DNA of 64,000 bases from Candidatus Latescibacterota bacterium (GTDB lineage Bacteria > Latescibacterota > UBA2968 > GCA-2709665): the NCBI GenBank assembly GCA_963662665.2, contig CAXXJS010000030.1:32001-96000 (forward strand), read 5' to 3'. Both the position numbers and the translations under genes were made by a program. Numbering within the stretch: position 1 is the first letter of the stretch; every line of letters starts with the position of its first letter. Below the pieces are notes generated by a model that ran no database searches, was not told the origin of the DNA, and worked only from the letters and a program-made list of their open reading frames with translations. Positions 27,425 through 52,769 of the stretch are shown here, in pieces.

Positions 27425-28007
27425 AGTGATGTTGTTCTGAGGTGTAAATTTACCGTCATACCCTAATGTTCCGTTCAATAGAAAGACAGCTATCCATACG
27501 AGTGAAAAATATCAGGGCGGAGCGGATAATATGGCCAAGACATTGACGAGGGATTTTGCAAATAACGGAAGCGAGCATTCTTTGGCTGTGCAGATACTGG
27601 GAGGGATACCGAGGTCGATGATGCCGGAACTAGATGTACCGGTCCGCGCGAAGCCTTGTCGGTTGACGGCACAACAATGGCGGCGCCTCCGCGGCGTTTA
27701 ATCTGTCTTTCTCGAGTGTTTCGATACGAAACATTGCCCCTTCTGCAGCAGATCCGAGGTAATCTCAATTCGGTTTACTGGCCGGCTGTGATGTTGTGTC
27801 GCCTATTATGGATCGGAAGACCTTTGCCGATTGGGATATGAAGTTTGCCTCGGGGTGCCGTTCCTGATGCGCAAGACCTCACTCTGAGTGGTAAAAGTTC
27901 GAATTTAAGCGTTGTTGTTGAACGACGGAGAATGTAGTTTTGCCAAATGGCAGACGTTCGATGTGCTCCGAGACCGGAAAACCAACGTCGTAGGGGGATC
28001 GATATTT

Positions 28008-31000
28008 ATGAGACAAGTACGTCACCTTTCTGTCCGCGTGCCATGGCATGACCGTACATGGGATGGCCGCGTCTGCGATTCACCGGTAGAAAACAGCTCC
28101 TGTTTAGCCCTGAAGTTCATCGCCGAAAACCGCAAGGATGATGTTGAGCAAGGATTCGCGGGCGAATCGTTCGACAAATTGCAGCCAAAGCACCAACCTC
28201 CATGTGTAAGAGTTAGTGCTAGCTTTCTAAGTCGTCACGAGCAAGCGTTTGAAAGCGTGATGGACTATTCGACCTCGAGCAAGGAACACGCACACATTCT
28301 CCCTCGTACTATTCATGTGCCTGCGTGGGGCGCGTTGGTGATACCCTACCGCTGGATGTTGAAAGAAAGTGGATTCAAGATTGCGGAAGAACTTGAGTTG
28401 GATGCCCGTCGCGACAGGGAGCCTAAATACCCGGCGTGGCTAAAGCACACGAGTTGGATTCAAGACTTTTCGAATCAGCAGGCGCTCCTAGCCGCCTTCG
28501 CTGGTCCGCTTGCAGAGGAAGAAAGTCTGATCCTGTTTTACTCGACGCGGACCCCGCTTTCCGAAAACGGACGCCGCGTTCTCTTGGGGGCGGCTCTTCT
28601 TCGAAAGAAGCACGAGCTCAGCGAGTACCCGTATGATAATACGAAAGACGGGCGGCTGCGTGCCACGGTCTGGGAGCGAGCCGTTCAACATAGTCTTCGT
28701 CCGAAGGGTAGTGTGGAAGGTTTCGACGGCGGGTTTGTAATGCCCTACCATGCGTTGATTAGGGAATTGGAGAGACGGCCAGAACTTAAACCGGACGACT
28801 ATGTAGCCTTCGCGCCGGATGATGCGCGAATTCAGTTCTCCTATGGGAGCGAACACGTCACTCACGGTGTCGCCGCTGCGACGCTCCTGGCTGCGCGTGA
28901 TGCGCTTAAGCGTACGGCGAATGTCCTTGAGGGACCGTGGGAGCGTTACATTGGTTGGATTGATGAACGGTTAGGTCGACTTTGGAAACTTCAGGGCCCT
29001 GCTCCCGGTCTGGGTATTGTTCTATCTGCACTTCATCCGGGTTTCAACGGCACGCTGTTCGCAATGGCTTTAAACGAAGAACTAGAAGAGAACGCCGATC
29101 CCTGGCCCGTGGTCGACAGCATACTCTCGGGTGGCCGGCAGCCGCCCAAACGTTCACCGGTCGTTACAAGTATGCTCCGCAGACGCTGGAAGCAGCAAGT
29201 AATGAAGAAACCGCTTCAGTTCGACTTCCTTAAACTTTTGGCACGTATGGAGTTGACCAAGGATCAGGCGGTGCGGTCGTTGGCGTACGATTCGAATGAG
29301 GTCTTGGCCAATCCGTATCGATTGTTCGAAAGTGACCGTATGCAGGTCGAGTCGATCTCATTCGGCGTGGTAGATCGTGGTTTGTATCCGGGAAACGAAG
29401 TGGCAACTGCCCATCCCCTCCCCAAAGCCTGTAATCCAGATCTTCTAGAGTATGACAATGCGCACCGACTAAGGGCAGCGACCGTGGAAATACTCGAACG
29501 CAGTGCAGAGGATGGGCACACCTTGCTTCCTATTGAAATTGTGACTAAGGCGAGTCGTGATCTTTCCGCTGTACACGAGCTACCACTCGACATGGATATG
29601 GTAGACATATGTCGCGACGACTTCGAACCGGTGATTTCAGTGATCGGCGATGAGAAGGAAATGTTGGTTCAGCTTGACCGCTACGTGGATAGCGGGAAGC
29701 TTATTCGGTCAGCCGTCGACGATCGAATTTCGAATGTACCCGAGTCGCCCAAGATTGATTGGCGTATGCTGGTTGACAGAAAATTCGGTCTGATTGGCGA
29801 AGGCGACGCCGACGAGAGTCGTGCCCGCACCGAAAAAGCAATCGCGCTGGAACGACTGGCTACGAGCCAGATGGCGGTACTCATCGGCCCCGCAGGGACG
29901 GGAAAAACAACTGTATTACAGCTGTTGCTGGATGAACGGGAAGTCGTAGGAGACCGCGTGCGCCTTCTGGCTCCCACAGGAAAGGCACGCGTGCGTCTAG
30001 ACCAAGAAACCGAACGCGAAGGAGAAACTCAGACCGTTGCCCAGTTTCTACTCGGATTGAATCGATACGACTCGAAGACCGGGCGGTATTGTGCAAACTC
30101 ATCTGAAGCAAAAACTGAGGCAACTACTTGCGTGGTGGACGAATCGTCAATGTTAACGGAGGACATGCTCGCAGCCATCGTAGATTCATTGCCGGGGAGT
30201 TGCCGGCTGATCCTTGTGGGCGACCCATATCAACTACCCCCAATCGGTGCGGGCTGCCCGTTTGTTGATATCATTGAATATTTGCAGCGCGTAAAGAACG
30301 GAACTGGTGTGGCTGAACTGAAAACGCCCCGCCGCCAAGAAAGCGAGGATGACACTGCAGCACTTTGTAGGTCTGATGTTCAACTCGCGGCGATCTTCTC
30401 TGGTCGGAAGTTGCCGCCAGGCGAAGACGAGATTGCCGTGAATGCAGTCAATGGCTCCGATGACGATACGGTAAAGTACCGTCAGTGGGAGAATCCAACA
30501 GAACTTCCGGACCTTATCGATAGTGTCCTCGCCGAAGATCTCGAGGTAGAAGATGAAGATCTAGTGTCTGCGTTTGAGGCGTCCTTAGGGGCAGAATATC
30601 GCAACAAACAGTACTTGGACTTCCGCCGGGGCAGCGCCAGTGGGGTGGAAAGCTGGCAGATCCTGAGTGTCAACCGCAATGGTCTGGGAGGGTCCATTTT
30701 TCTGAACCGGGGGATCAAAGAGCGACTGCGGAGCGAACGTCTATCCCAGGCAGTGGACTCGAACAACGTCCCTCACTATCGAGACTGGATGCGCTTCACC
30801 AAACCCCGTGGTCCTGAGCAAATCGTCTATGGCGACAAGGTGATCTGCGTGCGCAATCACAATCGAAATCCGTGGGTTTACAATGAGAATGCAAACGGGG
30901 AACGTGAGTTCCTCGCAAACGGTGAGATTGGGATAATTATTGGCCAGAAGAAATGGGGAAGGAGCAATCCGAAATTCACCCATGTGGAATTCGCGGATCG

Positions 31001-31763
31001 AAGCAACCGCAACTTTTCATTCACCCCATCAGACTTTTCCGAGGATGGTGAGCCCTACCTAGAACTAGCTTATGCTCTTACGGTGCATAAGGCCCAGGGC
31101 AGCGAGTTCGGTAGCGTCATTCTGGTGCTGCCGTCCCATAGTCGAATGGTTTCTCGTGAGATGATTTATACTGCTTTGACGCGCCAGAAGCGGCGCATTT
31201 GGATTCTCCACCAAGGACCGTTCGACAGGTTTCTGGCACTCCGTCATTACGTGTTCTCGAACATCGCGTCGCGCTTCACGAACCTGCTCCGGACGCCGGC
31301 ATACGAGGCGGTTCGGTTGCCGGCAGATTTACCCGTTGGCCTTAGTGGATCGAAGCGTGATTTTCTTGAAGAAAGGCTTATTCACCGGACTATTCGAGGC
31401 GAGATGGTAAGTTCGAAGAACGAGTTGGTTATCGCGAATATTCTTTATGACTTCGAGAGGGAAGGGCAACTCACTTACGAAGTTGAACCGCCGCTGAACT
31501 TCGATGGCGCCGGTGGACGGCATTCGGATTTCCGAATTTATGCAAAGGGACAGAATTGGTTCTGGGAACACTGTGGGATGCTGGACAACGTACATTATCG
31601 CAATCGCTGGAACAGTAAAAAGAAACTCTATGCGGAAAATGGCTTCACTGTGTTTTCGAGCGAGAATACGGGTGGTCGATTGATCGTAACGAAGGACGGC
31701 CCGGAACAGGGTTTGGATACAAAAGCGATTGAAGAACTCGCACGAGCGCTTTTTGTGAGTTGA
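28008..31763 (+). CDS. RecD-like SF1 helicase with C-terminal endonuclease-like domain
   Basis: Walker A 'GPAGTGKT', 'VVDESSM', 'LVGDPYQLPPIG', 'YALTVHKAQGSEF', 'YTALTR'; C-terminal 'SKNE...SDF...WEHCG' nuclease-like pattern. Confidence 0.85.
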   Translation: MRQVRHLSVRVPWHDRTWDGRVCDSPVENSSCLALKFIAENRKDDVEQGFAGESFDKLQPKHQPPCVRVSASFLSRHEQAFESVMDYSTSSKEHAHILPRTIHVPAWGALVIPYRWMLKESGFKIAEELELDARRDREPKYPAWLKHTSWIQDFSNQQALLAAFAGPLAEEESLILFYSTRTPLSENGRRVLLGAALLRKKHELSEYPYDNTKDGRLRATVWERAVQHSLRPKGSVEGFDGGFVMPYHALIRELERRPELKPDDYVAFAPDDARIQFSYGSEHVTHGVAAATLLAARDALKRTANVLEGPWERYIGWIDERLGRLWKLQGPAPGLGIVLSALHPGFNGTLFAMALNEELEENADPWPVVDSILSGGRQPPKRSPVVTSMLRRRWKQQVMKKPLQFDFLKLLARMELTKDQAVRSLAYDSNEVLANPYRLFESDRMQVESISFGVVDRGLYPGNEVATAHPLPKACNPDLLEYDNAHRLRAATVEILERSAEDGHTLLPIEIVTKASRDLSAVHELPLDMDMVDICRDDFEPVISVIGDEKEMLVQLDRYVDSGKLIRSAVDDRISNVPESPKIDWRMLVDRKFGLIGEGDADESRARTEKAIALERLATSQMAVLIGPAGTGKTTVLQLLLDEREVVGDRVRLLAPTGKARVRLDQETEREGETQTVAQFLLGLNRYDSKTGRYCANSSEAKTEATTCVVDESSMLTEDMLAAIVDSLPGSCRLILVGDPYQLPPIGAGCPFVDIIEYLQRVKNGTGVAELKTPRRQESEDDTAALCRSDVQLAAIFSGRKLPPGEDEIAVNAVNGSDDDTVKYRQWENPTELPDLIDSVLAEDLEVEDEDLVSAFEASLGAEYRNKQYLDFRRGSASGVESWQILSVNRNGLGGSIFLNRGIKERLRSERLSQAVDSNNVPHYRDWMRFTKPRGPEQIVYGDKVICVRNHNRNPWVYNENANGEREFLANGEIGIIIGQKKWGRSNPKFTHVEFADRSNRNFSFTPSDFSEDGEPYLELAYALTVHKAQGSEFGSVILVLPSHSRMVSREMIYTALTRQKRRIWILHQGPFDRFLALRHYVFSNIASRFTNLLRTPAYEAVRLPADLPVGLSGSKRDFLEERLIHRTIRGEMVSSKNELVIANILYDFEREGQLTYEVEPPLNFDGAGGRHSDFRIYAKGQNWFWEHCGMLDNVHYRNRWNSKKKLYAENGFTVFSSENTGGRLIVTKDGPEQGLDTKAIEELARALFVS

Positions 31764-32245: not shown

Positions 32246-35200
32246 TTAACTAACGACTTCCAGAAGCTCAGCGACAACCTGAAGCTTCCCCTCTTCCCTC
32301 TCTCTCAGGACGATGGGTTCGAATTCGGGATTGTTGGGACGGAGCGTAATGAGTTCGTGCCGCCAGGATTCGCCATATTGGATCTTCTCGCTGTGATAAC
32401 GCTTGATGGTGTAACGCTGGCCAGTTTCGGGATCGGTTGCGTCGCTGAGTTGCACCAGGACGGTCTTTCCCTGGCGTGTGCCTTCCACTGGAGCACGAAA
32501 TAAACCATACGCTCCGTTGGGTACCGCGGGTTCCATTGATCGTCCTACGATCTGCGCGACAAACATACCTGGCCGGAGGCGATGGCGTGAATTCACGGAT
32601 GCCCATTCGAATTCGCCGTCCTCGACGTGGTGCGGATCGCCGAATGCGCCAGCGGCCGCTTTGAGTGGAACGAACGGCACACATGAAACGTATCGTTCCT
32701 CGGGACTACCTTCAACCAGTCTGAGTGCGGCCGGGAACCCGAGATCTGTCGCTGTTTCTTCTGTTACAGCCAAGTTGGATCGCAGCCGTCCATAGGCCTC
32801 GGTGGCCATCCGATTGCGGATAGTATCCTGAAACGAGTCGTCGTTCATATATCGCTGAAAGATCGCCTCGTTTTGATCCATGCGTTCGACGAAGATCTGA
32901 TCCAGGAGACTTCTAAACACCAGTTCGAATTTGTCCTTTGGATTTACCGTTGCCGCCTGACGCATTGCGACGTCAGCCATTGCAGCCTCGACGATATGAT
33001 CGAAGAAGAGTTGATCGGCCTGGTTGAAGTCGGTCCCGAAACGCTCGTTGACGACGTCGATCAGCTGGGAGAACGGGACGGACTCTTCGTGTACTTCGCC
33101 GGTGCCGACCTCTTTCGGGCCGTCCAGGGCGTGCGCGTCCCCCTCAGCCAGTGAAATCGAGCCTTCGCTGATCTTCTGCAGCCTGTAGTATTCCAGTTGC
33201 ACGTCGTCGTCAAAATGATAGGCCGGGCCGCTCCTGCGTTTTCGTAGTTTCGGCGACAGATGTCGAAGGAACACATGCAGGCGTTCGAGGTCCGAGTCCT
33301 GATACGGAATGATCTGGCTCAAAAACCCGTAGAGGTTGCGGAACGCCTGAATCTGTCCGCGAAGGAGTTCCGCGCCGTCTTCATTTTCTTCCCACATTTC
33401 GTTAAAGAGTGTGACCGCGGGATCAAGTGCAGCATTCATATCCTTGTGGTCTTGCACGGTCTGACGCTGCCTGGGCTTGAAATATACGGCACAGAACCTT
33501 TTGATTTCCTCATCCAGATAAATACCTGACGCGTCGAGGTCCCCTTTTACTTCGTACATTCTGGCGGGATCGACTTCCTCACCCATCTCCGCGCCTTCGA
33601 AGTAGACTTTGAACGCCTCCCGGATCTCTTCCCGGTCATTGACGAAGTCCAGCACGAATGTGTCCTCTTTGAGAGGATGGGTGCGGTTCAGGCGCGAAAG
33701 CGTCTGTACGGCCTGGATGCCTGCGAGTCGCTTGTCAACGTACATCGTGTGAAGTAGCGGCTGATCGAATCCGGTCTGGTATTTCTCCGCCACCAGCAGT
33801 ACCTGGTATTCCTGTGTCGCGAACTTCTCCGGAAGTTCCGTCTCGCGAATACCTTCGTTCATCTTTACTTCGGTGAACTCGACGCCCGGAAATTTGTCGT
33901 CTTGTACGGTACCCGAGAACGCGACCAGGGTTTTGATCGGATATCGCTTCTTTTCAATGTAATCATCAAAACTCTGCTTATAACGCACAGCTTTGAGGCG
34001 TGAGTCCGTCACCACCATGGCCTTGGCCCGACCGCCGATCTTGTGTCGCGTTACGGTCTGGAAGTGTTCCACCATTACTTCGGTTTTCTGTGCGATATTG
34101 TATGGGTGCAGCTGCATAAAGCGAGCCAGCCCGCGCGCCGCCTGTTTGCGCTCCACGTTTGGATCTTCTTCGCAGGCCTTGAGAAGTTTGAAGTAGGTCG
34201 CGTAGGTCGTGTAATGCTCAAGCACGTCGAGGATGAACCCTTCCTCAATTGCCTGCCGCATCGTGTATTTGTGGAATTGCTCTCCTTCGCGGCCAAACAC
34301 GGCAAGTGTCCTGTGTTTGGGCGTTGCCGTAAACGCGAAGAAACTCAGATTTTCCTGCCTGCCGCGCTTGGCCATGCTACGGAACAATTCTTCGAGATCC
34401 TCGCTCCCCTCCTCCTCAGCGCGTCTGCGCGCCTCTTCCCGAAGATCTCCTCCACCCAGGACCTCCCGGAGATGCGTCGAAGTCTCCCCGCCCTGAGAAC
34501 TGTGGGCTTCGTCGACGATGACCGCACATCGCCGTGAAGGAAGCGTACCGGACCCGGATGCGCCTTCTTCCTCAGCCATCTTGAGCAAATGTTGTGATAC
34601 GAATGGAAATTTCTGAAGTGTGGTGATGATGATCGGGACTGCATGTTCTAGGGCTTCTGCGAGTTGCCTGGACTGTTCGTCGATCTTCTGAACCACGCCA
34701 TGCTTGTGTTCAAATTGGTAGATGGTGTCTTGCAGTTGCTGGTCCAGGACGACGCGGTCAGTCACAACGATCACGCTATCGAAAACGCGTTCATTCTTCC
34801 TGTCGTGCAGGGAAGCGAGGCGGTGCGCAAGCCAGCCGATTGTGTTGCTCTTACCGCTGCCAGCCGAGTGTTCAACAAGGTAGTTGTTCCCCACGCCCTC
34901 GTCCCGGGCCGTTTTTACCAGTTTGCGAACAGCGTCGAGTTGGTGATATCTCGGGAAAATCATCGACTCGACCTTCACCTTGTGGCCCTGGTCGTCGCGT
35001 TTTTCCTCGATCTGCAGATGGATATAGCGAGCGAGAATGTCGAGCAGACTGTCGCGTTCGAACACTTCCTCCCAGAGGTATGCCGTCCGATAGTTCCGCC
35101 CGTTCGGATCGGGCGGGTTTCCCGCCCCACCATCATTGCCTTTGTCGAATGGCAGAAATTGAGTCGCTTCCCCGGCCAGTCGAGTGGTCATGCGTACGCA

Positions 35201-35782
35201 CTCGGTGTCGACTGCGAAATGAACGAGCGAACGCCGCTTGAAATCGAAGATCGGCTCTCTGGGATCACGGTCCAGACGATACTGGCGCATTGCGTCGTCG
35301 ACCGTCTGCCCCGTCAGCGGGTTTTTGAGTTCAACCGTAGCGACTGGTATACCGTTCAGACTTAACGTTACGTCGAGTGACTTCTCCGATCGAGGTGAGT
35401 ATCGAAGTTGGCGGGTGATTCCCAGCCGGTTTGCTGCGTAGCGTGCTTCGAGTTCCGGGTTCAACTCGTGCGCCGCTTTGAAGAACGCAGGGTACAGCGT
35501 CCGCCCGTAGCACTTGAAGCCGTGTCGCATAGTAGCCAGCGAACCGTTCACGTCCATCCATTTGCAAAGGTCCGTGAAAACCTGCTCTCCAGTTCTATCT
35601 CCGTGCAGCGCTTGCAGTCTGGCCCATTCTTTGGGTTGTGTCTCGCGAATGAACGCCAGAATGACGTCAGGAAAGATCGCCCGGTCCCGGTCAAAACCTC
35701 CTGCGGCGACGGTGACGTAACCATTCGCCAATAGATGTGATTCGATGACGGTCTCGAAGGCGGCTTCACTGGTTTGGTTCAT
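32246..35782 (-). CDS. hsdR: Type I restriction endonuclease subunit R with C-terminal S24 (LexA-like) peptidase domain
   Basis: Nuclease 'LDVTL...VELKN', Walker A 'HSAGSGKS', 'DEAHSSQ', 'FTATP', 'QTGFDQP', 'QTLSRLNR'; tail 'AAAG...GRSMEP...TIKRY...LRPNNPEFEPI'. Confidence 0.93.
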   Translation of the reverse strand: MNQTSEAAFETVIESHLLANGYVTVAAGGFDRDRAIFPDVILAFIRETQPKEWARLQALHGDRTGEQVFTDLCKWMDVNGSLATMRHGFKCYGRTLYPAFFKAAHELNPELEARYAANRLGITRQLRYSPRSEKSLDVTLSLNGIPVATVELKNPLTGQTVDDAMRQYRLDRDPREPIFDFKRRSLVHFAVDTECVRMTTRLAGEATQFLPFDKGNDGGAGNPPDPNGRNYRTAYLWEEVFERDSLLDILARYIHLQIEEKRDDQGHKVKVESMIFPRYHQLDAVRKLVKTARDEGVGNNYLVEHSAGSGKSNTIGWLAHRLASLHDRKNERVFDSVIVVTDRVVLDQQLQDTIYQFEHKHGVVQKIDEQSRQLAEALEHAVPIIITTLQKFPFVSQHLLKMAEEEGASGSGTLPSRRCAVIVDEAHSSQGGETSTHLREVLGGGDLREEARRRAEEEGSEDLEELFRSMAKRGRQENLSFFAFTATPKHRTLAVFGREGEQFHKYTMRQAIEEGFILDVLEHYTTYATYFKLLKACEEDPNVERKQAARGLARFMQLHPYNIAQKTEVMVEHFQTVTRHKIGGRAKAMVVTDSRLKAVRYKQSFDDYIEKKRYPIKTLVAFSGTVQDDKFPGVEFTEVKMNEGIRETELPEKFATQEYQVLLVAEKYQTGFDQPLLHTMYVDKRLAGIQAVQTLSRLNRTHPLKEDTFVLDFVNDREEIREAFKVYFEGAEMGEEVDPARMYEVKGDLDASGIYLDEEIKRFCAVYFKPRQRQTVQDHKDMNAALDPAVTLFNEMWEENEDGAELLRGQIQAFRNLYGFLSQIIPYQDSDLERLHVFLRHLSPKLRKRRSGPAYHFDDDVQLEYYRLQKISEGSISLAEGDAHALDGPKEVGTGEVHEESVPFSQLIDVVNERFGTDFNQADQLFFDHIVEAAMADVAMRQAATVNPKDKFELVFRSLLDQIFVERMDQNEAIFQRYMNDDSFQDTIRNRMATEAYGRLRSNLAVTEETATDLGFPAALRLVEGSPEERYVSCVPFVPLKAAAGAFGDPHHVEDGEFEWASVNSRHRLRPGMFVAQIVGRSMEPAVPNGAYGLFRAPVEGTRQGKTVLVQLSDATDPETGQRYTIKRYHSEKIQYGESWRHELITLRPNNPEFEPIVLREREEGKLQVVAELLEVVS

Positions 35783-35911: not shown

Positions 35912-37045
35912 TCATGCTGGTTCATGGTTTTTCAGATAGAGAACCCTTATCTCGCGGCCCGTGATAGCGACTTCCTCTATTTCCTCATCACAGTAAAATC
36001 TGTAACCCCCGCCGACCTCCAAACCATCTAGACTTGGCCCCCCTCCCTTAACCTTGCCCGAACGTTTTCCTTCGTTCGTGAGCAATCCCCAAGAGCCGTT
36101 TCCACGGTTAAATCTCTCGAAGGTTCCCTCCAGCGTTATTGATTCACTTCCCAGATTCGTAACACTCGAAAGCGTTTCTATCAGCTGGCTTGCCTCGGAC
36201 TGCGATACCGCGCGGCTGCTTGGGCGTTCTGATTTCGGTTCGGCCCACGAGTAGCGCAGCCCCGTTTCTCGTTCAACCAGAAAACGCAAGAGCTTCAGGT
36301 ATGTCCCTGCCAGGTGCCCACGTTGTTCCTTTACGGTGAGAAGTGTTTTCTGAGGGTTCGCAGTATCCTCAAATAACACATCGATTCGTCGCAGTGCTCT
36401 CGCAAGTTTACTGCCTCCGAAAAAATCCGCCATACTCGCGGCTTCTAGGACAATCTGAAATGATCCGGCTGCCGCTGGAATAACGACATCCATCATGTCT
36501 TCGTCCGGCTGCCGATAGCGAGGATCATCTCCCTTCATTTCTGCTTTGTAAGCGTACTTGACCATGCCCTGAACGAGATTCAACATCCCTGCGAGCGTAT
36601 TCACACGGATACGATGTTGCATCGCCGCCTCTGGTGGCTCTGCAACGACCTTAAGTACGAGGTTGTTGCGCTCCCGGGCTTCCCTGAGCACAGAATCGTC
36701 AGGAGAGCGGTCGTGTAACACAAAACCAGCATCTGGAAGAAATCCACTATCCATGAGCGTAGTAGACAGATTATTAAGCACTAGTGGATGGTCCAGGTCC
36801 GTATCTAATGTCGCCAGAAACCGTTCCTCTTCGTCCGATTTTATCAGCAATGAGCGAAGATCGACTGCGCCTGAACGGAACTCCCGCAATTGCTCGGGAG
36901 CGACACCGGCCACGAGATAACGTTCACTTAGATTATCAGACTCCACCATGACCGCAACATAGTGTCCACCGATCGCATCGTGGGCCTCGAAGACCTGGGG
37001 GCCATCGTAATAGAATAGAGTCCTGGTGTGTCGGATCTTTTTCAT
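35912..37045 (-). CDS. Uncharacterised protein, N-terminus resembling DUF6575
   Basis: 'LFYYDGPQVFEA' N-terminal motif (recalled, not searched); ATGA coupling with the upstream gene. Confidence 0.65.
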   Translation of the reverse strand: MKKIRHTRTLFYYDGPQVFEAHDAIGGHYVAVMVESDNLSERYLVAGVAPEQLREFRSGAVDLRSLLIKSDEEERFLATLDTDLDHPLVLNNLSTTLMDSGFLPDAGFVLHDRSPDDSVLREARERNNLVLKVVAEPPEAAMQHRIRVNTLAGMLNLVQGMVKYAYKAEMKGDDPRYRQPDEDMMDVVIPAAAGSFQIVLEAASMADFFGGSKLARALRRIDVLFEDTANPQKTLLTVKEQRGHLAGTYLKLLRFLVERETGLRYSWAEPKSERPSSRAVSQSEASQLIETLSSVTNLGSESITLEGTFERFNRGNGSWGLLTNEGKRSGKVKGGGPSLDGLEVGGGYRFYCDEEIEEVAITGREIRVLYLKNHEPA

Positions 37046-37419
37046 TGGGTTTCCACTACACAGTTGGCCAAGATGTCAAAATCTGCTAGCGGCCACCAGG
37101 TATGATGTGACCGGTGTCCTGTCTGTAAAATGGAGCCTGCACCCGTTTCAAGTACTACTCGGCAAATTAAACGTTCGCGTAGGCTCGGGAGCATCAACGC
37201 CTTTTGGGAATGGCTTCGTTCAGCAAAAACAGATAGTCCCCTGGCCTGGCACTCGGAGATCTTGCCGAAGTCACGGTCCGGATTTTCAGCTCGCTGGGAT
37301 GCGAAGTCCTCCTCCGTCGGTGGGCTGGTTCGCACCAAGCGAAAAACCACTCGTGTTGCTGTAATGTCTTCTGCGACATCAGGTGGGCAACCTTCAGGTA
37401 ACTGCTCTCGGTAATTCAT
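37042..37419 (-). CDS. Small protein with ADP-ribosyltransferase-like R-S-H pattern
   Basis: 'GCPP', 'VVFR', 'RGLSVF', 'HHTWW'. Confidence 0.55.
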   Translation of the reverse strand: MNYREQLPEGCPPDVAEDITATRVVFRLVRTSPPTEEDFASQRAENPDRDFGKISECQARGLSVFAERSHSQKALMLPSLRERLICRVVLETGAGSILQTGHRSHHTWWPLADFDILANCVVETQ

Positions 37420-37554
37420 AGGCTGACAGAGATTGCTTAGCTTGGTCGTTCAAGGCAATGCCGCCCTGGACGTCGAATTCTCCGGTCACCGAGGCAGTTT
37501 TGTGCGCGGAGCCGCGTTCTTTGATCAGAGGAAAAATATTGCTCGCGCTGGCTC

Positions 37555-37805
37555 GTAGCCAACAAGCCATCTGCGTCCATCCATTTGCACAGATCCGTCA
37601 AATCTTGTTCTCCCGTTCTGTCACCGTGGAACGCGTTGCGCCTAGCCCATTCCTTGGGCTGAGTCTCACGGATAAACGCAATTACGACGTCGGGCAAAAT
37701 CGCACGGTCGCGGTCGAAACCGCCTGCGGCGACGGTGAGGTAACCATTCGCCATTAGATGTGATTCAATGACCGTCTCAAAGGCAGCTTCAGTGGTTTCG
37801 CTCAC
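37555..37805 (-). pseudogene. Orphan diverged copy of the hsdR 5' end
   Basis: Colinear with 35532-35782; 68/84 aa identical by manual alignment; homology stops abruptly. Confidence 0.9.
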
Positions 37806-37865
37806 GTATCGACTCCCAAAAGGAACAGCGTCCAGTTGCGTCGTTATATCTTGAGTTTGGTTGTA

Positions 37866-39455
37866 TCAACCTTTGGACCTCTCACGTCTCCGAAGCCATT
37901 CGGAGTTATCTGTCGCTACGCGTGATAATCCTGATGCGAAGTGTTGTGCCACCCGCTGAGCGAAATCAGCTTTAAGATCTCCGATCCATTTGAATCTCAT
38001 TCCATCCGTGCACGTAAAGAAAAACTGTCCATCTGTGGCTTTCTCTGCAACTACGCACTTCTTAGAGTCATCCGGCGCAAACTTCGGCAGCAGCCATTGA
38101 GAAGGATTCGTGCATACGCTTCGACGTATATAGCCATCCTGGGCGTTTTTTACAACAACCTGAGTTTGTTTTTGCTGCGGGTTTATCAACGGTAACAAAG
38201 GGAAACACTCGTCACTTTGCAAGCGAACACTGTCACATCTCGGCCTCACACAGAGAAAGAATCCCCCTCCACCGTCGAGATTCTCTTGCTCAAGAGCAGT
38301 ACCCAATTGCAGTATGGGTGGCAGAGAATTGCTTACTGTCCGAAAGTTAAACATCCAGGCAAGCTGATGATCAAGGTCTTCCGATCCGTTTCCACTATTC
38401 GCAAATTTAGAGGATAGGGACCTGTAGTCTTGTCCGCTCAGCGAACTTAGATCTATGCCTTCCTTAAGTAGACGCAGAACATCGCTAAAGGATAGTTCCT
38501 TCTTCGGAAATTTAAATTTCATTTCTTGGCTGAAGTTCGAGTACAGCCAATCACTGACCGCATCGAGGCTCGCCGGATTCACTTCCATTATTGCGTCATC
38601 CATTATCGAATTCAACTCGCTATCAAGTAAGCTTACCATGTGCTGTTGAGAATCTTCCGGCGAGGAAAGACACGCACGATGTGCGAGGAACGCCGGATCA
38701 AGGTCTGCTGAAAAGGAATCGAGGACTCGATGTGCGTTCTCACGTACTGCTGCAAGTGATGTGAGCGCAATACTGGGCAGTAACCCCTTTGTCATATCTG
38801 CGAAGTCTTTAATGAGACGCTTCGCAATTTCACCCTCCGAAATTGCTCTATCCGTCAGCTCTGAGGGCAACAACGTCCCGGATTTCGCGTATATAACGAT
38901 ATGACAATGCCCATAGAAGAGATCGACACTCTGACCACACGGTTCAAAGTTCCAGCCTTGGTTACTCAACGCCCGCTTAATGCTCGTTTGTATTCCAATC
39001 AGGTCGTTTTCTCCGGTATAAATAGCGACCAGACGCAATCGGGCGACTTCGCTATTTTGCAGGAGGTTTTTCAACAATTTAAGGGTCCTCGCCCCATCGT
39101 CGTCGTGCAACTGCCAGTCCAATATCACAATGTCAGCCCGTCTCGCGGCTGGTAGTACACTAGCAACCAACGAATCATTTTCCCAAGGTGCCGTTACGGC
39201 GCAGATCAACCCTCGTTTGGCGAAGGTTTCTACTATCGTTCGTGCGTCCAAGCTGTGGGTAGTAGCCCTTCGTCTTGCATTTCTACCGTCAGGGACGGTT
39301 CCAACCGTGCGACGACTCGGAGTCTCCAAAGACTCGGTTGGCTTAGGCAAATCCGAAATCTGTGCTTCGTCATCCACGATTACGGCGGTAAGAAGAAATC
39401 GCTCTGCAATCTCAGCACATCGTTTCTCAAAATCGTCCATTTCAGTTGTTTCCAT
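37866..39455 (-). CDS. Response-regulator receiver domain protein with large uncharacterised C-terminus
   Basis: 'VIVDDE', 'DIVILDWQL' (phospho-acceptor Asp), 'IYTG', 'YAK'; start 39455 or 39440. Confidence 0.8.
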   Translation of the reverse strand: METTEMDDFEKRCAEIAERFLLTAVIVDDEAQISDLPKPTESLETPSRRTVGTVPDGRNARRRATTHSLDARTIVETFAKRGLICAVTAPWENDSLVASVLPAARRADIVILDWQLHDDDGARTLKLLKNLLQNSEVARLRLVAIYTGENDLIGIQTSIKRALSNQGWNFEPCGQSVDLFYGHCHIVIYAKSGTLLPSELTDRAISEGEIAKRLIKDFADMTKGLLPSIALTSLAAVRENAHRVLDSFSADLDPAFLAHRACLSSPEDSQQHMVSLLDSELNSIMDDAIMEVNPASLDAVSDWLYSNFSQEMKFKFPKKELSFSDVLRLLKEGIDLSSLSGQDYRSLSSKFANSGNGSEDLDHQLAWMFNFRTVSNSLPPILQLGTALEQENLDGGGGFFLCVRPRCDSVRLQSDECFPLLPLINPQQKQTQVVVKNAQDGYIRRSVCTNPSQWLLPKFAPDDSKKCVVAEKATDGQFFFTCTDGMRFKWIGDLKADFAQRVAQHFASGLSRVATDNSEWLRRRERSKG

Positions 39456-42417
39456 TTGACTCCTTTGGTGCAACAGACACGGGGCCAATGGCAAAGGTAG
39501 CGCCTTTCATATCGTTGGTAGATCTCAAATACAAATCGTAACCTACGCGCCGAAGCACCTCTCTGGCAATGTGCAGCCCCATTCCACGTCCTCCCGGCTT
39601 TCTCGTAAACCCTAACTCAAATATCGCATCTCGATCACTTGGATTCACACCGGGCCCTGAATCTGAAACCAAAAATGTGCCATCTGTCGCGTCAAGGACG
39701 ATCCGGCGCTCGTCCGCAGGATTGTTCTGTGAGACCCAATAGACTGCGTTGTCGATGAGATTCACGAATACCGGATAGAAGGATGAAGGGAAACCATGAA
39801 TTCTCATTCTGGAAAATGCCTTGGTTTGTTGGAATTCTATTTCGTGACCTGTGAATCTCTCCTCGAAAAGGTCATTTAAGAAGGTGTAGATATCAGAACC
39901 AGGAATATCCACTGCTTTTCTCTGAAGCCTTCGATGTAGTGGTGTAAACAGCGTCAGGTATCCGTCCAAATGATCGAAGCTTGCACGAATGTCGTTGTAA
40001 AGTTTTTGGAGATCCTTATTGATGTCTGCCCATGCTCTTAGCCGACGAAGATTATTGCGAATGGAACGAATTGTTGAATTGAACTCGTGATTAATGACCT
40101 CAACTGCCATTCCGAGTTGGGCAAGTTGCAAGTCGCCCTCAACTTCCTCCTCGAGTGAGAGGTTTCGATGTTCGATCGCAACGAGTTGATCCAATACTGA
40201 TGTCTCACCGCTTAAGTCAATAGCTTGTAATTGATCAAAAAGCGATTCAAAAAAGCTAGTTTTGTCTTCCGCAACCGCCAGAATACGCGACTCTAGATCG
40301 ACGCGGAAATCAATTAAGTCCTCATTCGAAAGCCTTGAAACATCAATCCGTTGAAATTCGCCAACGACAGAGCGTAGCGCGGTTTCCACTTCGCTCAGGT
40401 GCGAACTAGCTAATCCTCGGACCTCCTCGGCTACCTTATTCGCTTCTTGTTTTACGCTGGTTCCACCCGCTCTCGTTTTCTTTATAGCATGTCTTGAAAG
40501 CTCATCGAGCGTCGTTTCGACCTGAAGTCTCCGGTCGATGCTCACGCGAGCTTTGTCGGCTTCATCTCTAACAACATCTGAGATCAAATCTCGAGTCGGA
40601 GAAAAGACTGTCTCCGAAAGTTCGGAAAATGCCAAATTGTAGTCATTCCACTCTCTTTGCATTGCCTTGCTAAGTGCTATCCTGGGTCGTGAAATTCTAT
40701 ATCGGGATTCGATCCTTCTAAGTTCCGTTTGGGCATCCTGCTCAACATGGATGAACTCTTGCGCCGCCCTGTGAGGATCCGATATGCGGCAAGCCATCTT
40801 GAGCCTCTGTGTAACATCCTCGCTCAACTTCAGGGCTTCATCATGAGGGTTTTTAGATGACACCTGTTCAAAAAACCAGACTAAATCTTTCGACAACTTC
40901 CGTTTCTTGATGGATACGAACCGTTCACGTCGTTTTCTATCCGAATCAACTTTTGAGAGTTCCTCCTTTTTCTTTTCAAACCTTTCGCTGTGGACACCTT
41001 CCTTTCGGAAAAAATCCGCAGCCATCTGCAAAAAAAAGTGCTTCAAAATGCTTTTGAATTGTCGATAAGCCTTGTTCTCTCGGAAACCTTCTCTACCAGC
41101 TTTTTCGTTGAGTTGCTGATTGTCTCGGTTGTTTATTTCTATAACACCGAACATTTTTCGATGTGAGAAATAGTAGTAGTAAGCGCTTTTTGTTCTATGG
41201 AGTTCTATATCAAGCCAATCATAATCCGTGTCTCCATACGGTAGTATCCTTATCCCATCCCGATAGATGTACAACCCGCCAATTTTACCCATTTTTTCGG
41301 CCATTCGAGCGTGGTCTTCAGCAGGAAGTGTTGAATGTCTACTCTCTCCCTCGATCGCGGCAAAGCTAATGAAAAAGGGACCGCAGGCGGTTGTGATCCC
41401 TCCCGCACCGGTCCAGGGAATAACGTGACTCTTTACTAATTCCCCATATATTAACACGTCTCCTTTGAATTGGCCGAATTCATCGAATTTTCCTGTGACT
41501 TGATGGTCCGCGTTTTGAAATTGCTCCGGCGTAAAGAACTCGCCTTCCTCGATAAGATCGTCTACGAGGTCGTCTGTCTTGTGGTCTCTGAATGCAGTGC
41601 GTATCACGGGTGACGAATGGTCCGGCGTCATTGTATTGGAGAATCCCAACAGTGCTTTCGTCAATGGTGTTGCCTTTTGGTCCTGAGGTTCTCCGTCGAT
41701 ATCCGTGGGTAGAAGGTCCGATGCAGGAAGAATGATGAAATGTGTACCTGTTCCGCCGCCGCTTAGTGTCGGATCACCGAGATAAGAATCAATGTCCTGA
41801 GGATCGACTCGAAACCCATCGAGTTCCTGTCGAAGACGGCTATAAAATCGTCCGCCAATCTTGTCTTTGAGATGCTCGTTATTTTGGGTGAATGCAGAAA
41901 CCATCTGATACACATCATGGCCTGACGGCAACTTGCCCCCGGGAAAGGTTCGAATGGGAACCTGGATATCTTCTAGATCGATTCCAGGACATTCAAAAAG
42001 GGTCCAGTTAACGAACGCCGCGGTGAGATCGGAGAGCGTACCGCTGTTTCGGGCGCGCGTCAACACAAGTACCTGCGGGCCGATGGTTGAAATTGCCAGG
42101 CGGCCGATGCCCTTTTCGCCCAGCATTGGTCGTTTTTTCTTGCCTGGATCGTGCGGTATCGGTTCCAACCCATCAGCATTGAGTTTGCTCTCGGTCCCGA
42201 TTGTAAGCCAACGGGTAGAAAAATCGTCCCGACTCATCCCAATCCCATCGTCACGTAATACGAACAGACCGTCACTGCGGTAGTAGTCGATCTCTACGCG
42301 GTCGGCATACGCATCGTGAGCATTCTTGAACAATTCACTGATTGCTGTTGGGATTCCCGCAATCTGTTGTCGTCCAAGCATGTCAAGCGTTCGAGCTCGT
42401 GTCTTAAATGTAGCCAT
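39442..42417 (-). CDS. MORC/MutL-like GHKL ATPase fused to a C-terminal histidine kinase
   Basis: N-terminal 'ELFKNAHDA', 'DDGIGM', 'GEKGIGR'; coiled coil; C-terminal H-box 'INHEF', 'NLIDNA', 'DSGPG', 'GRGMGL'. Confidence 0.87.
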   Translation of the reverse strand: MATFKTRARTLDMLGRQQIAGIPTAISELFKNAHDAYADRVEIDYYRSDGLFVLRDDGIGMSRDDFSTRWLTIGTESKLNADGLEPIPHDPGKKKRPMLGEKGIGRLAISTIGPQVLVLTRARNSGTLSDLTAAFVNWTLFECPGIDLEDIQVPIRTFPGGKLPSGHDVYQMVSAFTQNNEHLKDKIGGRFYSRLRQELDGFRVDPQDIDSYLGDPTLSGGGTGTHFIILPASDLLPTDIDGEPQDQKATPLTKALLGFSNTMTPDHSSPVIRTAFRDHKTDDLVDDLIEEGEFFTPEQFQNADHQVTGKFDEFGQFKGDVLIYGELVKSHVIPWTGAGGITTACGPFFISFAAIEGESRHSTLPAEDHARMAEKMGKIGGLYIYRDGIRILPYGDTDYDWLDIELHRTKSAYYYYFSHRKMFGVIEINNRDNQQLNEKAGREGFRENKAYRQFKSILKHFFLQMAADFFRKEGVHSERFEKKKEELSKVDSDRKRRERFVSIKKRKLSKDLVWFFEQVSSKNPHDEALKLSEDVTQRLKMACRISDPHRAAQEFIHVEQDAQTELRRIESRYRISRPRIALSKAMQREWNDYNLAFSELSETVFSPTRDLISDVVRDEADKARVSIDRRLQVETTLDELSRHAIKKTRAGGTSVKQEANKVAEEVRGLASSHLSEVETALRSVVGEFQRIDVSRLSNEDLIDFRVDLESRILAVAEDKTSFFESLFDQLQAIDLSGETSVLDQLVAIEHRNLSLEEEVEGDLQLAQLGMAVEVINHEFNSTIRSIRNNLRRLRAWADINKDLQKLYNDIRASFDHLDGYLTLFTPLHRRLQRKAVDIPGSDIYTFLNDLFEERFTGHEIEFQQTKAFSRMRIHGFPSSFYPVFVNLIDNAVYWVSQNNPADERRIVLDATDGTFLVSDSGPGVNPSDRDAIFELGFTRKPGGRGMGLHIAREVLRRVGYDLYLRSTNDMKGATFAIGPVSVAPKESNGNN

Positions 42418-42418
42418 C

Positions 42419-43513
42419 TTAGCGGAGTACTCCCACTTCCTTCAGATGTTTGTTGATTTGTCGTCCGATTGATGCTGCCAATTTAACTGGAACAGCATTG
42501 CCGATCTGTCGTGCCATCGAGGCGAGGCTTCCTTCGAATTTGAAGTCACGCGGAAAAGTCTGCAGACAGGCTGCTTCACGGATGCTGATAGCTCGATCCT
42601 GATCCGGGTGTCCGAAACGACCGTTGGAGTAACTGATGCATCTTGTCGTTAACGCCGTGGCCGGTCGGTCCCACGCCATACGGCCGTAGACGTCGCTATA
42701 TCCCGTTGTGTTATTGTGGCATTCTAGACGAAATCTTTCCGGCCAATCTTTACGGCCTCCGCCTTCCGGCGTCGCTCGAATACGCTCCAGATTTAGTTCT
42801 GACAGTCTCGCGGCACGATGATTTAGAAAGGTCTCATGTTCGTCGCCTGCCTCGATCGGTGGAAGATTTCCGATCCAATTCCTGACCGTTTCGTAACTGG
42901 GGTTGTCCGTTCCAGGCCCGTTTGTCTCCGATGGGAGTTCGATTGGACCGTGACGGCTTGCCAGAAGAACAAGGCGACAACGACACTGCGGGATTCCATA
43001 TTTCATGGCCCGCACTTTGCTGTACTTGATATAATCGTAGCCGGCTGAGCGAAGACTTTGAAGGAATTCTCCGAACGGCCGAGTACTCGATTTCTCTTCC
43101 TCAAGACCGGCCACATTCTCGATGAAGACGATGTCTGGTTTGCAGGCTTCGACAAACTCGGCGAACCGGGACAACAGTGTTTTCCGGTCGTCATCTTCTT
43201 TTTCGATTTGCTTCCTGTTATGCCTTGTGAATGGCTGGCATGGCGCGCATCCGCAAAATAACAAGGGGTTAGGTCTTTGCGCATCAACAATTGAACGAAC
43301 TTCAGAGATTGGTGTCTTGCGAATATTCTTGAATACGTAATGAGTCGAAGGGAAATTCGTTTGATAGGTACGTCGAGAGTCAGGATCGAAATCGAGCGCA
43401 AAGACGATCTCCATGCCAGCATCCCTGAACCCACAACTCGCCCCACCGCAACCCGAAAAAAAGTCGAATACTTTGACACTCACGCCATTACCTTTATATG
43501 GGAAATTAACCAT
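42419..43513 (-). CDS. dcm: DNA (cytosine-5) methyltransferase
   Basis: 'DFFSGCGG', 'PCQ', 'ENV', 'PQCRCR', 'REAACLQTFP', 'QIGNAVP'; start uncertain (43483-43513). Confidence 0.92.
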   Translation of the reverse strand: MVNFPYKGNGVSVKVFDFFSGCGGASCGFRDAGMEIVFALDFDPDSRRTYQTNFPSTHYVFKNIRKTPISEVRSIVDAQRPNPLLFCGCAPCQPFTRHNRKQIEKEDDDRKTLLSRFAEFVEACKPDIVFIENVAGLEEEKSSTRPFGEFLQSLRSAGYDYIKYSKVRAMKYGIPQCRCRLVLLASRHGPIELPSETNGPGTDNPSYETVRNWIGNLPPIEAGDEHETFLNHRAARLSELNLERIRATPEGGGRKDWPERFRLECHNNTTGYSDVYGRMAWDRPATALTTRCISYSNGRFGHPDQDRAISIREAACLQTFPRDFKFEGSLASMARQIGNAVPVKLAASIGRQINKHLKEVGVLR

Positions 43514-43916
43514 CAAAATACCGGCGCATCGACTGCTCAACGAGATCCCGATCCGCTGTCTCACATTCCCATATAATTAAGGACTTCCAACCTGCTTCCT
43601 CCAGAGCAACTACATTTCGCCGATCACGTTCGATATTTCGTGACAGTTTCTCGTCCCAGAAGATTCTGTTTGTTGTAGGACGTCTCGCCTTCGGACAGTC
43701 GTTGTGTCCGTGCCAGAAGCAGCCGTGGACAAAGATCACTTTCCGGTGCCGGGGAAATACCAGATCAGGCTTTCCAGGCAGACCATCGTCGTATAAACGA
43801 AAGCGATAGCCCAGATTATGGGCGATTTTTCGGATGCGATTTTCAGGCTTTGTGTCCTTGTCCCGGACTCGCCCCATAATTTCGCTTCGTTTCTTTTGGT
43901 TGTAAATATCTGCCAT
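43506..43916 (-). CDS. vsr: Very short patch repair endonuclease
   Basis: 'KRSEIMGRVRDKDTKPE', 'LPGKPDLV', 'FVHGCFWHGH', 'IWECE'. Confidence 0.95.
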   Translation of the reverse strand: MADIYNQKKRSEIMGRVRDKDTKPENRIRKIAHNLGYRFRLYDDGLPGKPDLVFPRHRKVIFVHGCFWHGHNDCPKARRPTTNRIFWDEKLSRNIERDRRNVVALEEAGWKSLIIWECETADRDLVEQSMRRYFDG

Positions 43917-44014: not shown

Positions 44015-45286
44015 TTAAGCGGATTCTGAGGAATTGATTGAGATCTGTCCGTTCACGGCAGCCGCGATAAGGGCAGAGCGGCGCTCCTTGAGGAGTGAAA
44101 TGGTGCGTTCTGTAGATTTGCGGACGCTATCGATTTCGGCAGTGTGACGAGCGATGTGGTCAACGACGCGCTTCTGCTCTTGATCGGGTGGTGTGAGGAG
44201 CGGCATCTCACTCAGGTTCGATGCTGAAATCGACGCCAAATTAGTAGACTGCTTAGCGCGGCTTTCAAAATACGCCTTGGCTACTTCACTTGTAGTATAG
44301 GTGTTAAGCCAGTCAGGCGATACCCGCCGTGGTCGCACTGCGAATACGTGGTTTTGATGTAAGCAAGGGTTGATCTGACCAGTCCAGATTGCTCCGCGCC
44401 CCAGCTTGTCCGCGTCTCCGCCTTCATTCATTAAAACGTCTCCGGCCCGAAGGTGGCACAGAGAGGCCTCTTTGTTCGGCACGGAAATAGACTTCACTTC
44501 GGTAAGATCAAAGTAGCCATCTTGAACATTCGCAACCCGCAGATAGGGAAACTCCCTCGTCGACTTGTTTCCAAAGCTTTTGCCCAAGGCAATCCCGGTC
44601 TGGACGGACGCTACGAATTTGAGACGAGTCACCTTCCAATGCGCCGGGATCTTGCCTAGCCAAGAGATGCCCGAGTGGCGGAACGGGACGTTCGGGTCGA
44701 GACCACGGGTCACGGCGCGGGTGATGAGCGCACGGCGCTTCTCGGCAACCAGGTCCAGCAGCCGTACGTTCTCCTTTACAAGCTCATCCAGCCTCGATGT
44801 CTCGTGGTCGAGATAGTCGGCGATGGCGCGTTGCTGATTCGGACCCGGGATCTGAATACGTAGATTAGCAAGGAACTCTCCGTTCACATGCGGAATACCC
44901 ATTCCAACTGTCTCGGCTTTAATCGTATCTTCCTGTGATTTACATGCCCAAAACAAAAACCTCGGATCAACAAATTTAGGAATGACGAGCGCGGCTGTCG
45001 ATGAGACAATACCCCGCTTAGCCCTTAGAAATTCCCCCGCATTTGATCCATCCCACAAGAGTAAGGTGTCGTTTTCGGAAGCCACAAGGGCATTGGGACC
45101 GAGACTGACGAGCGTCGGGTCATTAATCTCTCCGCGAAGAAACTCCATCGTGAGATAAGGTGCGACTTCGACATTGAGACCTGCCTGATCAACTGAAGTT
45201 GGTAAGTTTCCTTTGTGGACATCGGCCAGGTATCGAAATCGAACTTCCTTCCACATTTCCGTGGCTGTTTTCGTAGCGGCGTTCAC
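44015..45286 (-). CDS. hsdS: Type I R-M specificity subunit
   Basis: Two TRD plus conserved-helix repeats ('QQRAIADYLD', 'EQKRVVDHI...ERRSALIAAAVNGQ'); GTGA overlap with hsdM. Confidence 0.92.
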   Translation of the reverse strand: MNAATKTATEMWKEVRFRYLADVHKGNLPTSVDQAGLNVEVAPYLTMEFLRGEINDPTLVSLGPNALVASENDTLLLWDGSNAGEFLRAKRGIVSSTAALVIPKFVDPRFLFWACKSQEDTIKAETVGMGIPHVNGEFLANLRIQIPGPNQQRAIADYLDHETSRLDELVKENVRLLDLVAEKRRALITRAVTRGLDPNVPFRHSGISWLGKIPAHWKVTRLKFVASVQTGIALGKSFGNKSTREFPYLRVANVQDGYFDLTEVKSISVPNKEASLCHLRAGDVLMNEGGDADKLGRGAIWTGQINPCLHQNHVFAVRPRRVSPDWLNTYTTSEVAKAYFESRAKQSTNLASISASNLSEMPLLTPPDQEQKRVVDHIARHTAEIDSVRKSTERTISLLKERRSALIAAAVNGQISINSSESA

Positions 45287-51554: not shown

Positions 51555-51584
51555 TTGACTTCTAAGACTGGGCGTGCTTATAGT
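51555..51584 (+). promoter_or_regulatory. Putative transposase promoter
   Basis: TTGACT-18 bp-TATAGT; AAGGAG RBS before ATG 51620. Confidence 0.5.
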
Positions 51585-51619
51585 TCGATGTCTCCCCTGA
51601 AGACGAAGGAGCCATCGGC

Positions 51620-52755: not shown

Positions 52756-52769
52756 CCGTCAAAGGGTAC

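Follow-up and report, generated by a model that had tools for sequence, protein, structure and literature searches.

What does a LexA-like peptidase domain do at the end of a restriction endonuclease? The question is raised by a gene within a stretch of 64,000 nucleotides (the window) from Candidatus Latescibacterota bacterium (GenBank assembly GCA_963662665.2, contig CAXXJS010000030.1, positions 32,001 to 96,000), in which an initial annotation, made from the letters and their translations, described the type I restriction subunit HsdR as fused to an S24 autopeptidase domain and suggested that it might be controlled by activated RecA (RecA*). The analysis reported here points to an undescribed protein-level switch on defence nucleases, most likely one that turns restriction off upon damage to the cell's own DNA. 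The gene and its parts are listed below, with coordinates numbered along the window and residues along the predicted protein.

32246-35782 (-): hsdR-S24 gene, one open frame of 1178 codons plus the stop codon (32246-32248); REase_I in PADLOC
32744-35782 (-): HsdR core, residues 1 to ~1013, with a PD-(D/E)xK HSDR_N nuclease domain, a superfamily 2 (SF2) motor and a helical C-terminal region, as assigned by Pfam
32249-32728 (-): portable S24 module, residues ~1019-1178, with a conserved lead-in strand, the cleavage-site region and the Ser-Lys protease core
32648-32653 (-): predicted scissile bond Ala1044-Gly1045 within VPFVPLKAAA-GAFG, from sequence and conservation
32528-32545 (-): GRSMEP motif with the predicted nucleophile Ser1082 (32537-32539), aligned with LexA GxSM
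32396-32410 (-): TIKRY motif with the predicted general base Lys1127 (32402-32404), aligned with TVKRY of the genome's own LexA

The tail of HsdR belongs to the S24 peptidases

Translation of 32246-35782 on the reverse strand confirmed the in-frame tail and the order of its S24 hallmarks, and the motifs LKAAAGAFG, GRSMEP, TIKRY and LRPNNPEFEPI were all located where they had been placed. The open reading frame (ORF) is an HsdR, with nuclease and SF2 translocase in a single chain. Its Pfam elements are HSDR_N (116-205), SWI2_SNF2 (280-521) and T1R_D3 (652-705), the families matched by the core being PF04313, PF18766, PF22679 and PF04851, and the core is collinear with EcoR124I HsdR (E 3e-11).

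The proposed S24 membership of the tail was upheld by profile and by fold. When the whole protein was compared with Pfam, Peptidase_S24 was matched at residues 1041-1170 with 22.9 bits (E 7e-5), slightly below the cut-off of 23.3; in a six-frame search of the genome the same stretch scored 26.8 bits against PF00717, above the cut-off, and scores of up to 59 bits were obtained among relatives of the tail. The single tail sequence gave no match at E<=1 in the Protein Data Bank (PDB) using phmmer. A profile built from 41 tails matched 23 PDB sequences at this threshold, all of them LexA, UmuD or lambda cI (best E 0.0016), so that among the PDB comparisons the relation was detected only by profile and fold searches.

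The AlphaFold2 model of the tail has a pLDDT of 91.5 and a pTM of 0.86. Among the Foldseek matches listed, only LexA, lambda cI or UmuD were found, down to E 0.0065. With VIA-align, the model was superimposed on Thermotoga maritima LexA with Z 12.2 (root mean square deviation (rmsd) 3.3, 127 residues aligned) and on lambda cI with Z 12.2 (rmsd 2.7, 118 aligned), and signal peptidases reached Z<=6.4. Residues 20-164 of the model align to residues 75-197 of Escherichia coli LexA, a range that covers its entire C-terminal domain together with the region of the cleavage site.

LexA and CI repressors have an N-terminal helix-turn-helix (HTH) domain; here, the N-terminal partner is HsdR. No repressor HTH was found in 70 representatives of the tail family that were scanned, apart from one weak MerR_1 match within a helicase. 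Two ordinary LexA-like genes lie elsewhere in the genome, and the tail is ~30% identical to the product of each (E ~1e-3). The sequence and the model together indicate that the tail has the S24 fold and a predicted catalytic apparatus, without the architecture of a repressor. It is a distinct S24 subfamily that barely reaches the Pfam threshold.

The predicted cleavage site and catalytic dyad are conserved

Fusions of the kind described in the initial annotation proved to be numerous. Among 3235 candidates, a search with the tail retrieved 1917 proteins of 647-2062 amino acids (aa) at E<=1e-3. A search of representative clusters at 50% identity gave 1710, of which 957 were at E<=1e-10. For the analysis of conservation, the best 150 of the 1710 representatives were taken; after 44 fragments had been dropped, 106 covered tail positions 25-155, giving 107 non-redundant tails with the query.

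The predicted active-site positions are nearly invariant in this set, at 102-107 of 107 tails, in keeping with the expectation that the Ala-Gly, Ser and Lys positions would be conserved. Ser1082 is kept in all 107 tails and Lys1127 in 105. Around the predicted scissile bond, which lies 37 residues before Ser1082, the P1 residue Ala1044 is found in 105 tails, the P1' residue Gly1045 in 102, Ala1043 at P2 in 106, and Ala, Val or Ile at P3 in 102. The flanking motif residues Gly1080 (106/107), Met1083 (106/107) and Thr1125 (104/107) are kept as well. No more than 17 residues separate the end of the module from that of the protein in 97 of the 106 representatives.

These data bear on a role that is independent of cleavage, in which the tail would serve for dimerisation or docking (to pair nucleases for double-strand cuts, or to bind the RecA filament or another partner), proteolysis being secondary. 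The C-terminal domains of LexA, cI and UmuD do dimerise, dimeric entries are among the fold matches, and many of the partner enzymes described below cut upon collision or dimerisation. However, pure docking would call for neither Ser and Lys nor the Ala-Gly bond, all of which are nevertheless kept, and the domain of the phage 186 repressor, which does not cleave, is a much weaker fold match to the model (Z 8.5-8.7, 10% identity). We therefore regard this role as distinctly improbable. A prediction of the tail homodimer, run without controls, scored 0.00 against a mark of 0.42 and carries no weight either way on LexA-like dimerisation.

The junction is genuine and the tail is under selection

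The module was found in 20 of 168 genomes of the phylum at E<=1e-20 and in 5 of 15 in the genus, this genome included; the closest named records are from Candidatus Latescibacterota metagenome-assembled genomes (MAGs), at 92% and 91%. A search of the 168 genomes with the HsdR core gave 14 places at >=80% identity, and in every one the frame is 1180-1242 aa long. HsdRs of the same family at 70%, 67% and <=53% identity have frames of ~1000-1040 aa that end opposite query residues ~1001-1013. The tail thus begins after the normal end of HsdR, as had been claimed, judged by tailless relatives of up to 70% identity. Compared with the closest relative, the tail has a ratio of nonsynonymous to synonymous substitution rates (dN/dS) of 0.16, and the core one of 0.10. 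On these sequence comparisons the tail is maintained by purifying selection and is not decaying.

An artefact or dead remnant, in the form of a mis-assembly or of a neighbouring repressor gene whose decaying fragment happens to be read through, might be suspected given that the source assembly is in 66 contigs and 92% complete, and given the truncated or frameshifted copies at several related loci. Assembly error was rejected because the long frame recurs in 14 genomes of the phylum, single-contig genomes included, and because core and tail occur together in 80 of the 120 database proteins with the best tail matches, which come from independent assemblies. A leftover repressor gene was rejected on the lack of an HTH domain (the weak MerR_1 match apart) and on the dN/dS of 0.16. 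This explanation can be considered refuted.

A sub-clade of HsdRs at 46-47% identity (in genomes G101, G107, G049, G052, G055 and G057) also has long frames, of 1177-1388 aa. The phylum genome search gave no second S24-tail match in G049, G052, G055 or G057, and this sub-clade may have a different C-terminal extension.

The S24 module is a portable cassette of defence nucleases

Of the 120 best tail matches, 80 share the HsdR core over >=600 aa (median identity 80% for the core and 71% for the tail) and 3 more are HsdR fragments. The remaining 37 lack any similarity in the core, and their tails are still 71-76% identical; by precomputed Pfam domains, 36 of them carry Type_ISP_C and one carries DEAD and MZB. 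Among 70 representatives of >=280 aa, a recognisable partner domain was present in 43, and S24 stood alone in 27. The partners comprise Type ISP/IIG and MmeI-type enzymes, two HsdR families, the Type III Res endonuclease, the McrBC family (McrC), LlaJI, PLD/NgoFVII, HNH, Schlafen AlbA_2, DUF2075-type helicases and DEAD+MZB giants. Judged from these sequences, the real unit is a portable cassette carried by many nuclease families, which goes beyond the single HsdR fusion first noticed.

Carriers among named genomes belong to Latescibacterota, Acidobacteriota, Myxococcota, Nitrospirota, Gammaproteobacteria, Planctomycetota, Chloroflexi, Gemmatimonadota, Binatia, Verrucomicrobia and Kiritimatiellae, with Corallococcus sp. 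RDP092CA (L031) as a cultured carrier. Certain automated annotations label such proteins 'helicase/SOS-response repressor LexA'. Phage records gave no module match at E<=1e-8, and plasmid records gave one, on a megaplasmid of the cultured Halomonas sp. PA16-9 (L084:4983-7453). There, the S24 module comes after a 686-aa ORF for a DUF2075/Schlafen-type helicase, in another frame and overlapping it by 70 bases, and AbiE and PIN_8 genes lie nearby; a frameshift, an error in the sequence or a split form of the protein could explain the change of frame.

Two further variants were noted. In four Type ISP-like proteins (P0125, P0142, P0152 and P0114), the S24 module is followed on its C-terminal side by an extra conserved domain of ~140 aa, which is 48-55% identical among three of the proteins and is matched by no Pfam family at E<=1e-4. 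In L008, L011, L026, L038, L040, L043, L051 and others, frames of ~290-430 aa consist of a Type_ISP_C piece and the S24 module. Truncation or frameshifts may account for these short copies, which suggests that decay, or sequencing error in long-read MAGs, is frequent.

The cassette also occurs inside HsdR

At one locus (L034), the S24 module lies inside an HsdR frame. A search with its junction retrieved 116 new clusters, in 68 of which more than 300 residues follow the module; 47 of the others have a C-terminal module, and one is truncated at 716 aa with 198 residues after the module. The internal cassette is found at about residues 300-460 of PF11867-type HsdRs, between the HSDR_N nuclease domain and the Walker A motif. 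The AG...GxSM...TxK motifs are kept in 67 of the 68 internal forms, and in 67 of 68 GSGKS follows within 80 aa of the module.

The two placements can be compared directly in a pair of proteins. Residues 1-302 and 476-1206 of P0272 align to residues 2-305 and 308-1038 of P0336, and residues 301-468 of P0272 align to the C-terminal tail of P0336 (residues 1044-1214). By this pairwise alignment, the difference between the two is a clean move of the cassette within one HsdR family. The recognised nuclease domain is N-terminal to the Ala-Gly site in every architecture that has one. The P2-P1 pair is Ala-Ala in 105-106 of the 107 tails, and AAA precedes the Gly in most internal forms.

The initial annotation had left it undecided whether HsdR would be switched off in the SOS response or switched on by single-stranded DNA (ssDNA) from phages. 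In the latter case, as in abortive infection, the S24 domain would keep the nuclease harmless or tethered until filaments of RecA formed during phage infection caused a cleavage that frees an active and possibly less specific nuclease. UmuD, which with UmuD' is among the fold matches, is indeed activated and not destroyed by S24 cleavage. The tail is also found on enzymes without a methylation partner (Schlafen/AlbA_2, DUF2075 helicases, PLD, HNH), where a licence triggered by infection makes sense, and a cut in the internal form would release the HSDR_N nuclease domain from the motor. However, one nearly identical module (~71-76%) would need to inhibit unrelated cores. The S24 domain of the internal form would remain on the motor after cleavage, so that nothing inhibitory would be removed from it. 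Restriction-modification (R-M) enzymes already distinguish self by methylation and would not need a licence, and free type I nuclease domains have no known activity on their own. Activation by cleavage thus appears unlikely. An Ala-Gly cut in the internal form would separate the nuclease domain from the motor, and these variants tilt the choice towards 'off'.

A possible off switch for restriction

Since the module is found on unrelated cores, and at two places in a single one, whatever it does would have to be generic. Scission of the chain at the Ala-Gly bond would be the simplest output of this kind; a tailored inhibitory contact does not fit the spread of partners. We tentatively propose, with somewhat less than even confidence, that the tail is a LexA-type Ser-Lys autopeptidase that acts as an off switch, so that restriction alleviation would be built into the enzyme itself. 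In the resting state, HsdR would act normally in the type I complex. Upon a DNA-damage signal, most likely the RecA-ssDNA filament, the cleavage-site loop would dock into the Ser1082/Lys1127 site, and the chain would cut itself between Ala1044 and Gly1045. The nuclease-bearing fragment would then end in ...VPLKAAA-COOH, similar to an ssrA tag, and ClpXP would remove it while sparing the methyltransferase HsdM2S. LexA(1-84) reportedly ends in VAA, an ssrA-like signal for ClpX. Alleviation would thereby be hard-wired in the enzyme as a one-shot switch. The logic of such a switch would be that self-cutting of the chromosome leads to RecBCD- and Chi-dependent loading of RecA, to RecA* and to self-destruction of the nuclease, with Chi-less foreign DNA giving no signal. 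We infer four things here: that cleavage occurs, that RecA* triggers it, that the new C-terminus acts as a degron, and that inactivation is the outcome.

Several elements of this scheme have precedents or matching host factors. The RecA-ssDNA filament stimulates all classical S24 proteins, and of 5 relatives with HsdR-S24, all 5 have RecA. A gene for the ClpX zinc finger was found in this genome (56.8 bits). HsdR of type IA and IB systems is degraded by ClpXP during the repair of damage, according to excerpts of PMC12707154, and the N-terminal fragments that S24 cleavage yields from LexA and CI are engaged by ClpX while the uncleaved proteins are not, according to excerpts of PMC10584840. The pocket of LexA that receives F203 of RecA consists of V79, V82, F111, L113, V146 and V153, as given in part of 10.1101/2023.10.30.564768. 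The putative equivalents in the tail, assigned by motif offsets only, are as follows (residue in LexA, residue in the tail, number of the 107 tails).

LexA F111: tail F1074, 106/107
LexA V146: tail L1109, 102/107
LexA V153: tail Y/F/L1124, 104/107
LexA V82: tail A/V/I1042, 102/107
LexA L113: tail A1076, 94/107
LexA V79: tail Pro/Ser/Asp by simple offset, uncertain

The pocket for RecA F203 thus appears hydrophobic and conserved in the tail. We consider it possible, though rather doubtful, that the cassette reads the RecA filament directly and that Chi-dependent loading of RecA provides a second check of self against non-self, in which self-cutting, but not Chi-poor foreign DNA, would make the nuclease split itself and expose a ClpX tag; such a cassette would have been spliced onto, or into, more than 10 unrelated restriction and defence families in at least 10 bacterial phyla.

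A number of points weigh against the off switch or against its control by RecA. Cleavage, RecA dependence and degradation are inferred throughout. Position V79 of the RecA pocket has only an uncertain equivalent, and a Tyr at the position of V153 could fill the pocket in cis. The loop with the cleavage site is 3 residues longer than in LexA (37 residues from Gly to Ser, compared to 34), and Ser and Lys are 45 residues apart compared to 37, with a long conserved hairpin that carries W1140 and H1142; the spacing in the LexA encoded by this genome is that of E. coli. A search of this assembly (66 contigs, 92% completeness) did not detect RecA (PF00154), although the gene probably sits in the unassembled part of the genome. 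The classical rationale for restriction alleviation is the appearance of unmodified sites after repair, and it does not apply to modification-dependent carriers (McrC, PLD, Schlafen-like). In single-chain R-M enzymes, the methyltransferase would go together with the nuclease, and the halves of an internally cut HsdR might remain associated and active.

Some of the same observations would favour self-cleavage independent of RecA, either as constitutive maturation or in response to another trigger, for example pH or stress, a phage protein, or a stall of the enzyme during translocation. There are S24 precedents for this, among them IrvR, as described in part of PMC7101444. The tail has conserved features that LexA lacks (W1060 in 104 of 107 tails, GTRQGK, DPETG, and W1140/H1142 on the long hairpin), and the longer loop, the aromatic residue at the V153 position and the RecA gene missing from the assembly point the same way. 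On the other hand, the entire cleavage-site region is kept together with F1074, the equivalent of F111, and RecA accompanies the gene in all five relatives. Constant self-removal would also be a costly route to a shorter protein, and yet the tail is under purifying selection. Cleavage without RecA is therefore improbable, and the off switch triggered by DNA damage is the reading that we carry forward.

The type I locus and its surroundings

The genes hsdM and hsdS lie upstream of hsdR-S24 on the same strand, with ~8 kb and six other ORFs in between. The genes of the type I system and those between hsdS and hsdR are listed below.

45283-47268 (-): hsdM of the same type I system, with HsdM_N and N6_Mtase; MTase_I in PADLOC, 864 bits
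44015-45376 (-): hsdS of the same type I system, with Methylase_S; Specificity_I in PADLOC
42419-43564 (-): C5 DNA methyltransferase, between hsdS and hsdR
39442-42417 (-): 991-aa MORC-like protein with HATPase_c_3, HEF_HK and HATPase_c, between hsdS and hsdR
37866-39494 (-): Response_reg_2 protein, between hsdS and hsdR
35912-37045 (-): DUF6575 protein, between hsdS and hsdR
within 35912-43564 (-): two small ORFs, one weakly PD-T4-10_A-like, between hsdS and hsdR

The stretch of six ORFs (35912-43564) may be a separate system inserted into the type I operon, or it may be accessory to the operon. The DUF6575 gene likewise adjoins hsdR-S24 on its upstream side in L006, the closest relative.

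Convergent with hsdR, a 1283-aa RecD-like helicase with AAA_30 and UvrD_C_2 is encoded at 27912-31763 (+); it is a full-length match (1353 bits) to PDC-S68, a candidate defence family in PADLOC. Upstream of hsdM there is an nSTAND1-type NTPase at 48865-51543 (-), together with three large ORFs at 47570-48868, 51562-52455 and 52759-55389 (-) that have no match in Pfam or PADLOC. The window looks like a defence island. The same genome encodes a second HsdR of the same family elsewhere (contig C51, 56907-59729; 40% identity), in a frame of 1003 aa without the S24 tail.

Comparison with known systems

To our knowledge, the self-protection of restriction enzymes after DNA damage is mechanistically understood only for the EcoKI type, through ClpXP, and other families and types are without a clear answer. 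The initial annotation knew of no S24-based mechanism for a restriction enzyme, and no description of one was found in the literature searched, which lay largely outside subscription journals. The terms 'S24' and 'LexA' occur 0 times in the main texts of the YprA preprint, the Dnd paper, the EcoSal R-M review, the CoCoNuT preprint and the BREX paper. A built-in, self-cleaving damage sensor would, if true, be a general solution, and would connect the SOS signal with innate immunity through the protein itself, without transcription. The cassette might also be engineered as a transferable, damage-triggered off-switch for proteins.

The core resembles other type I HsdRs (EcoR124I-like and PF11867/HindI-like) in its HSDR_N nuclease, SF2 motor and domain 3 and in the hsdM and hsdS genes upstream. 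It differs by the extra S24 cassette of ~160 aa, which relatives of the same family at <=70% identity lack.

The tail shares with the C-terminal domains of LexA, lambda cI and UmuD (MEROPS S24, PF00717) the fold (Z 12.2 to 10.3), the Ser-Lys dyad, set in GxSM and TxK(R) motifs, the loop that bears an Ala-Gly bond ~35 residues before the Ser, and a last strand of the form L-x-P-x-N-x-x-F-x-P-I. Unlike these proteins, it has neither an HTH domain nor a polymerase partner, being fused to nucleases, usually at the extreme C-terminus and sometimes internally. Its cleavage loop is also longer than that of LexA, and the spacer between Ser and Lys is longer by 8 residues with a conserved hairpin.

In the restriction alleviation of EcoKI and EcoAI by ClpXP, as described in part of PMC12707154, HsdR alone is removed post-translationally after damage and the methyltransferase is spared, and the same would hold here. 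In the case of EcoKI, however, ClpXP recognises HsdR that has stalled in translocation on the chromosome, with no self-cleavage and no contact with RecA, whereas HsdR-S24 would carry its own sensor and scissors, and its degron would be made by the cut. A latent ClpX signal that is exposed only after autocleavage at Ala-Gly is found in the N-terminal domain of LexA and in CI of Staphylococcus aureus phage phi11 (PMC10584840, in part), to be compared with the predicted terminus ...KAAA in this protein. The substrate of ClpX is a small DNA-binding domain in those cases; here, it is predicted to be a motor nuclease of ~1040 aa.

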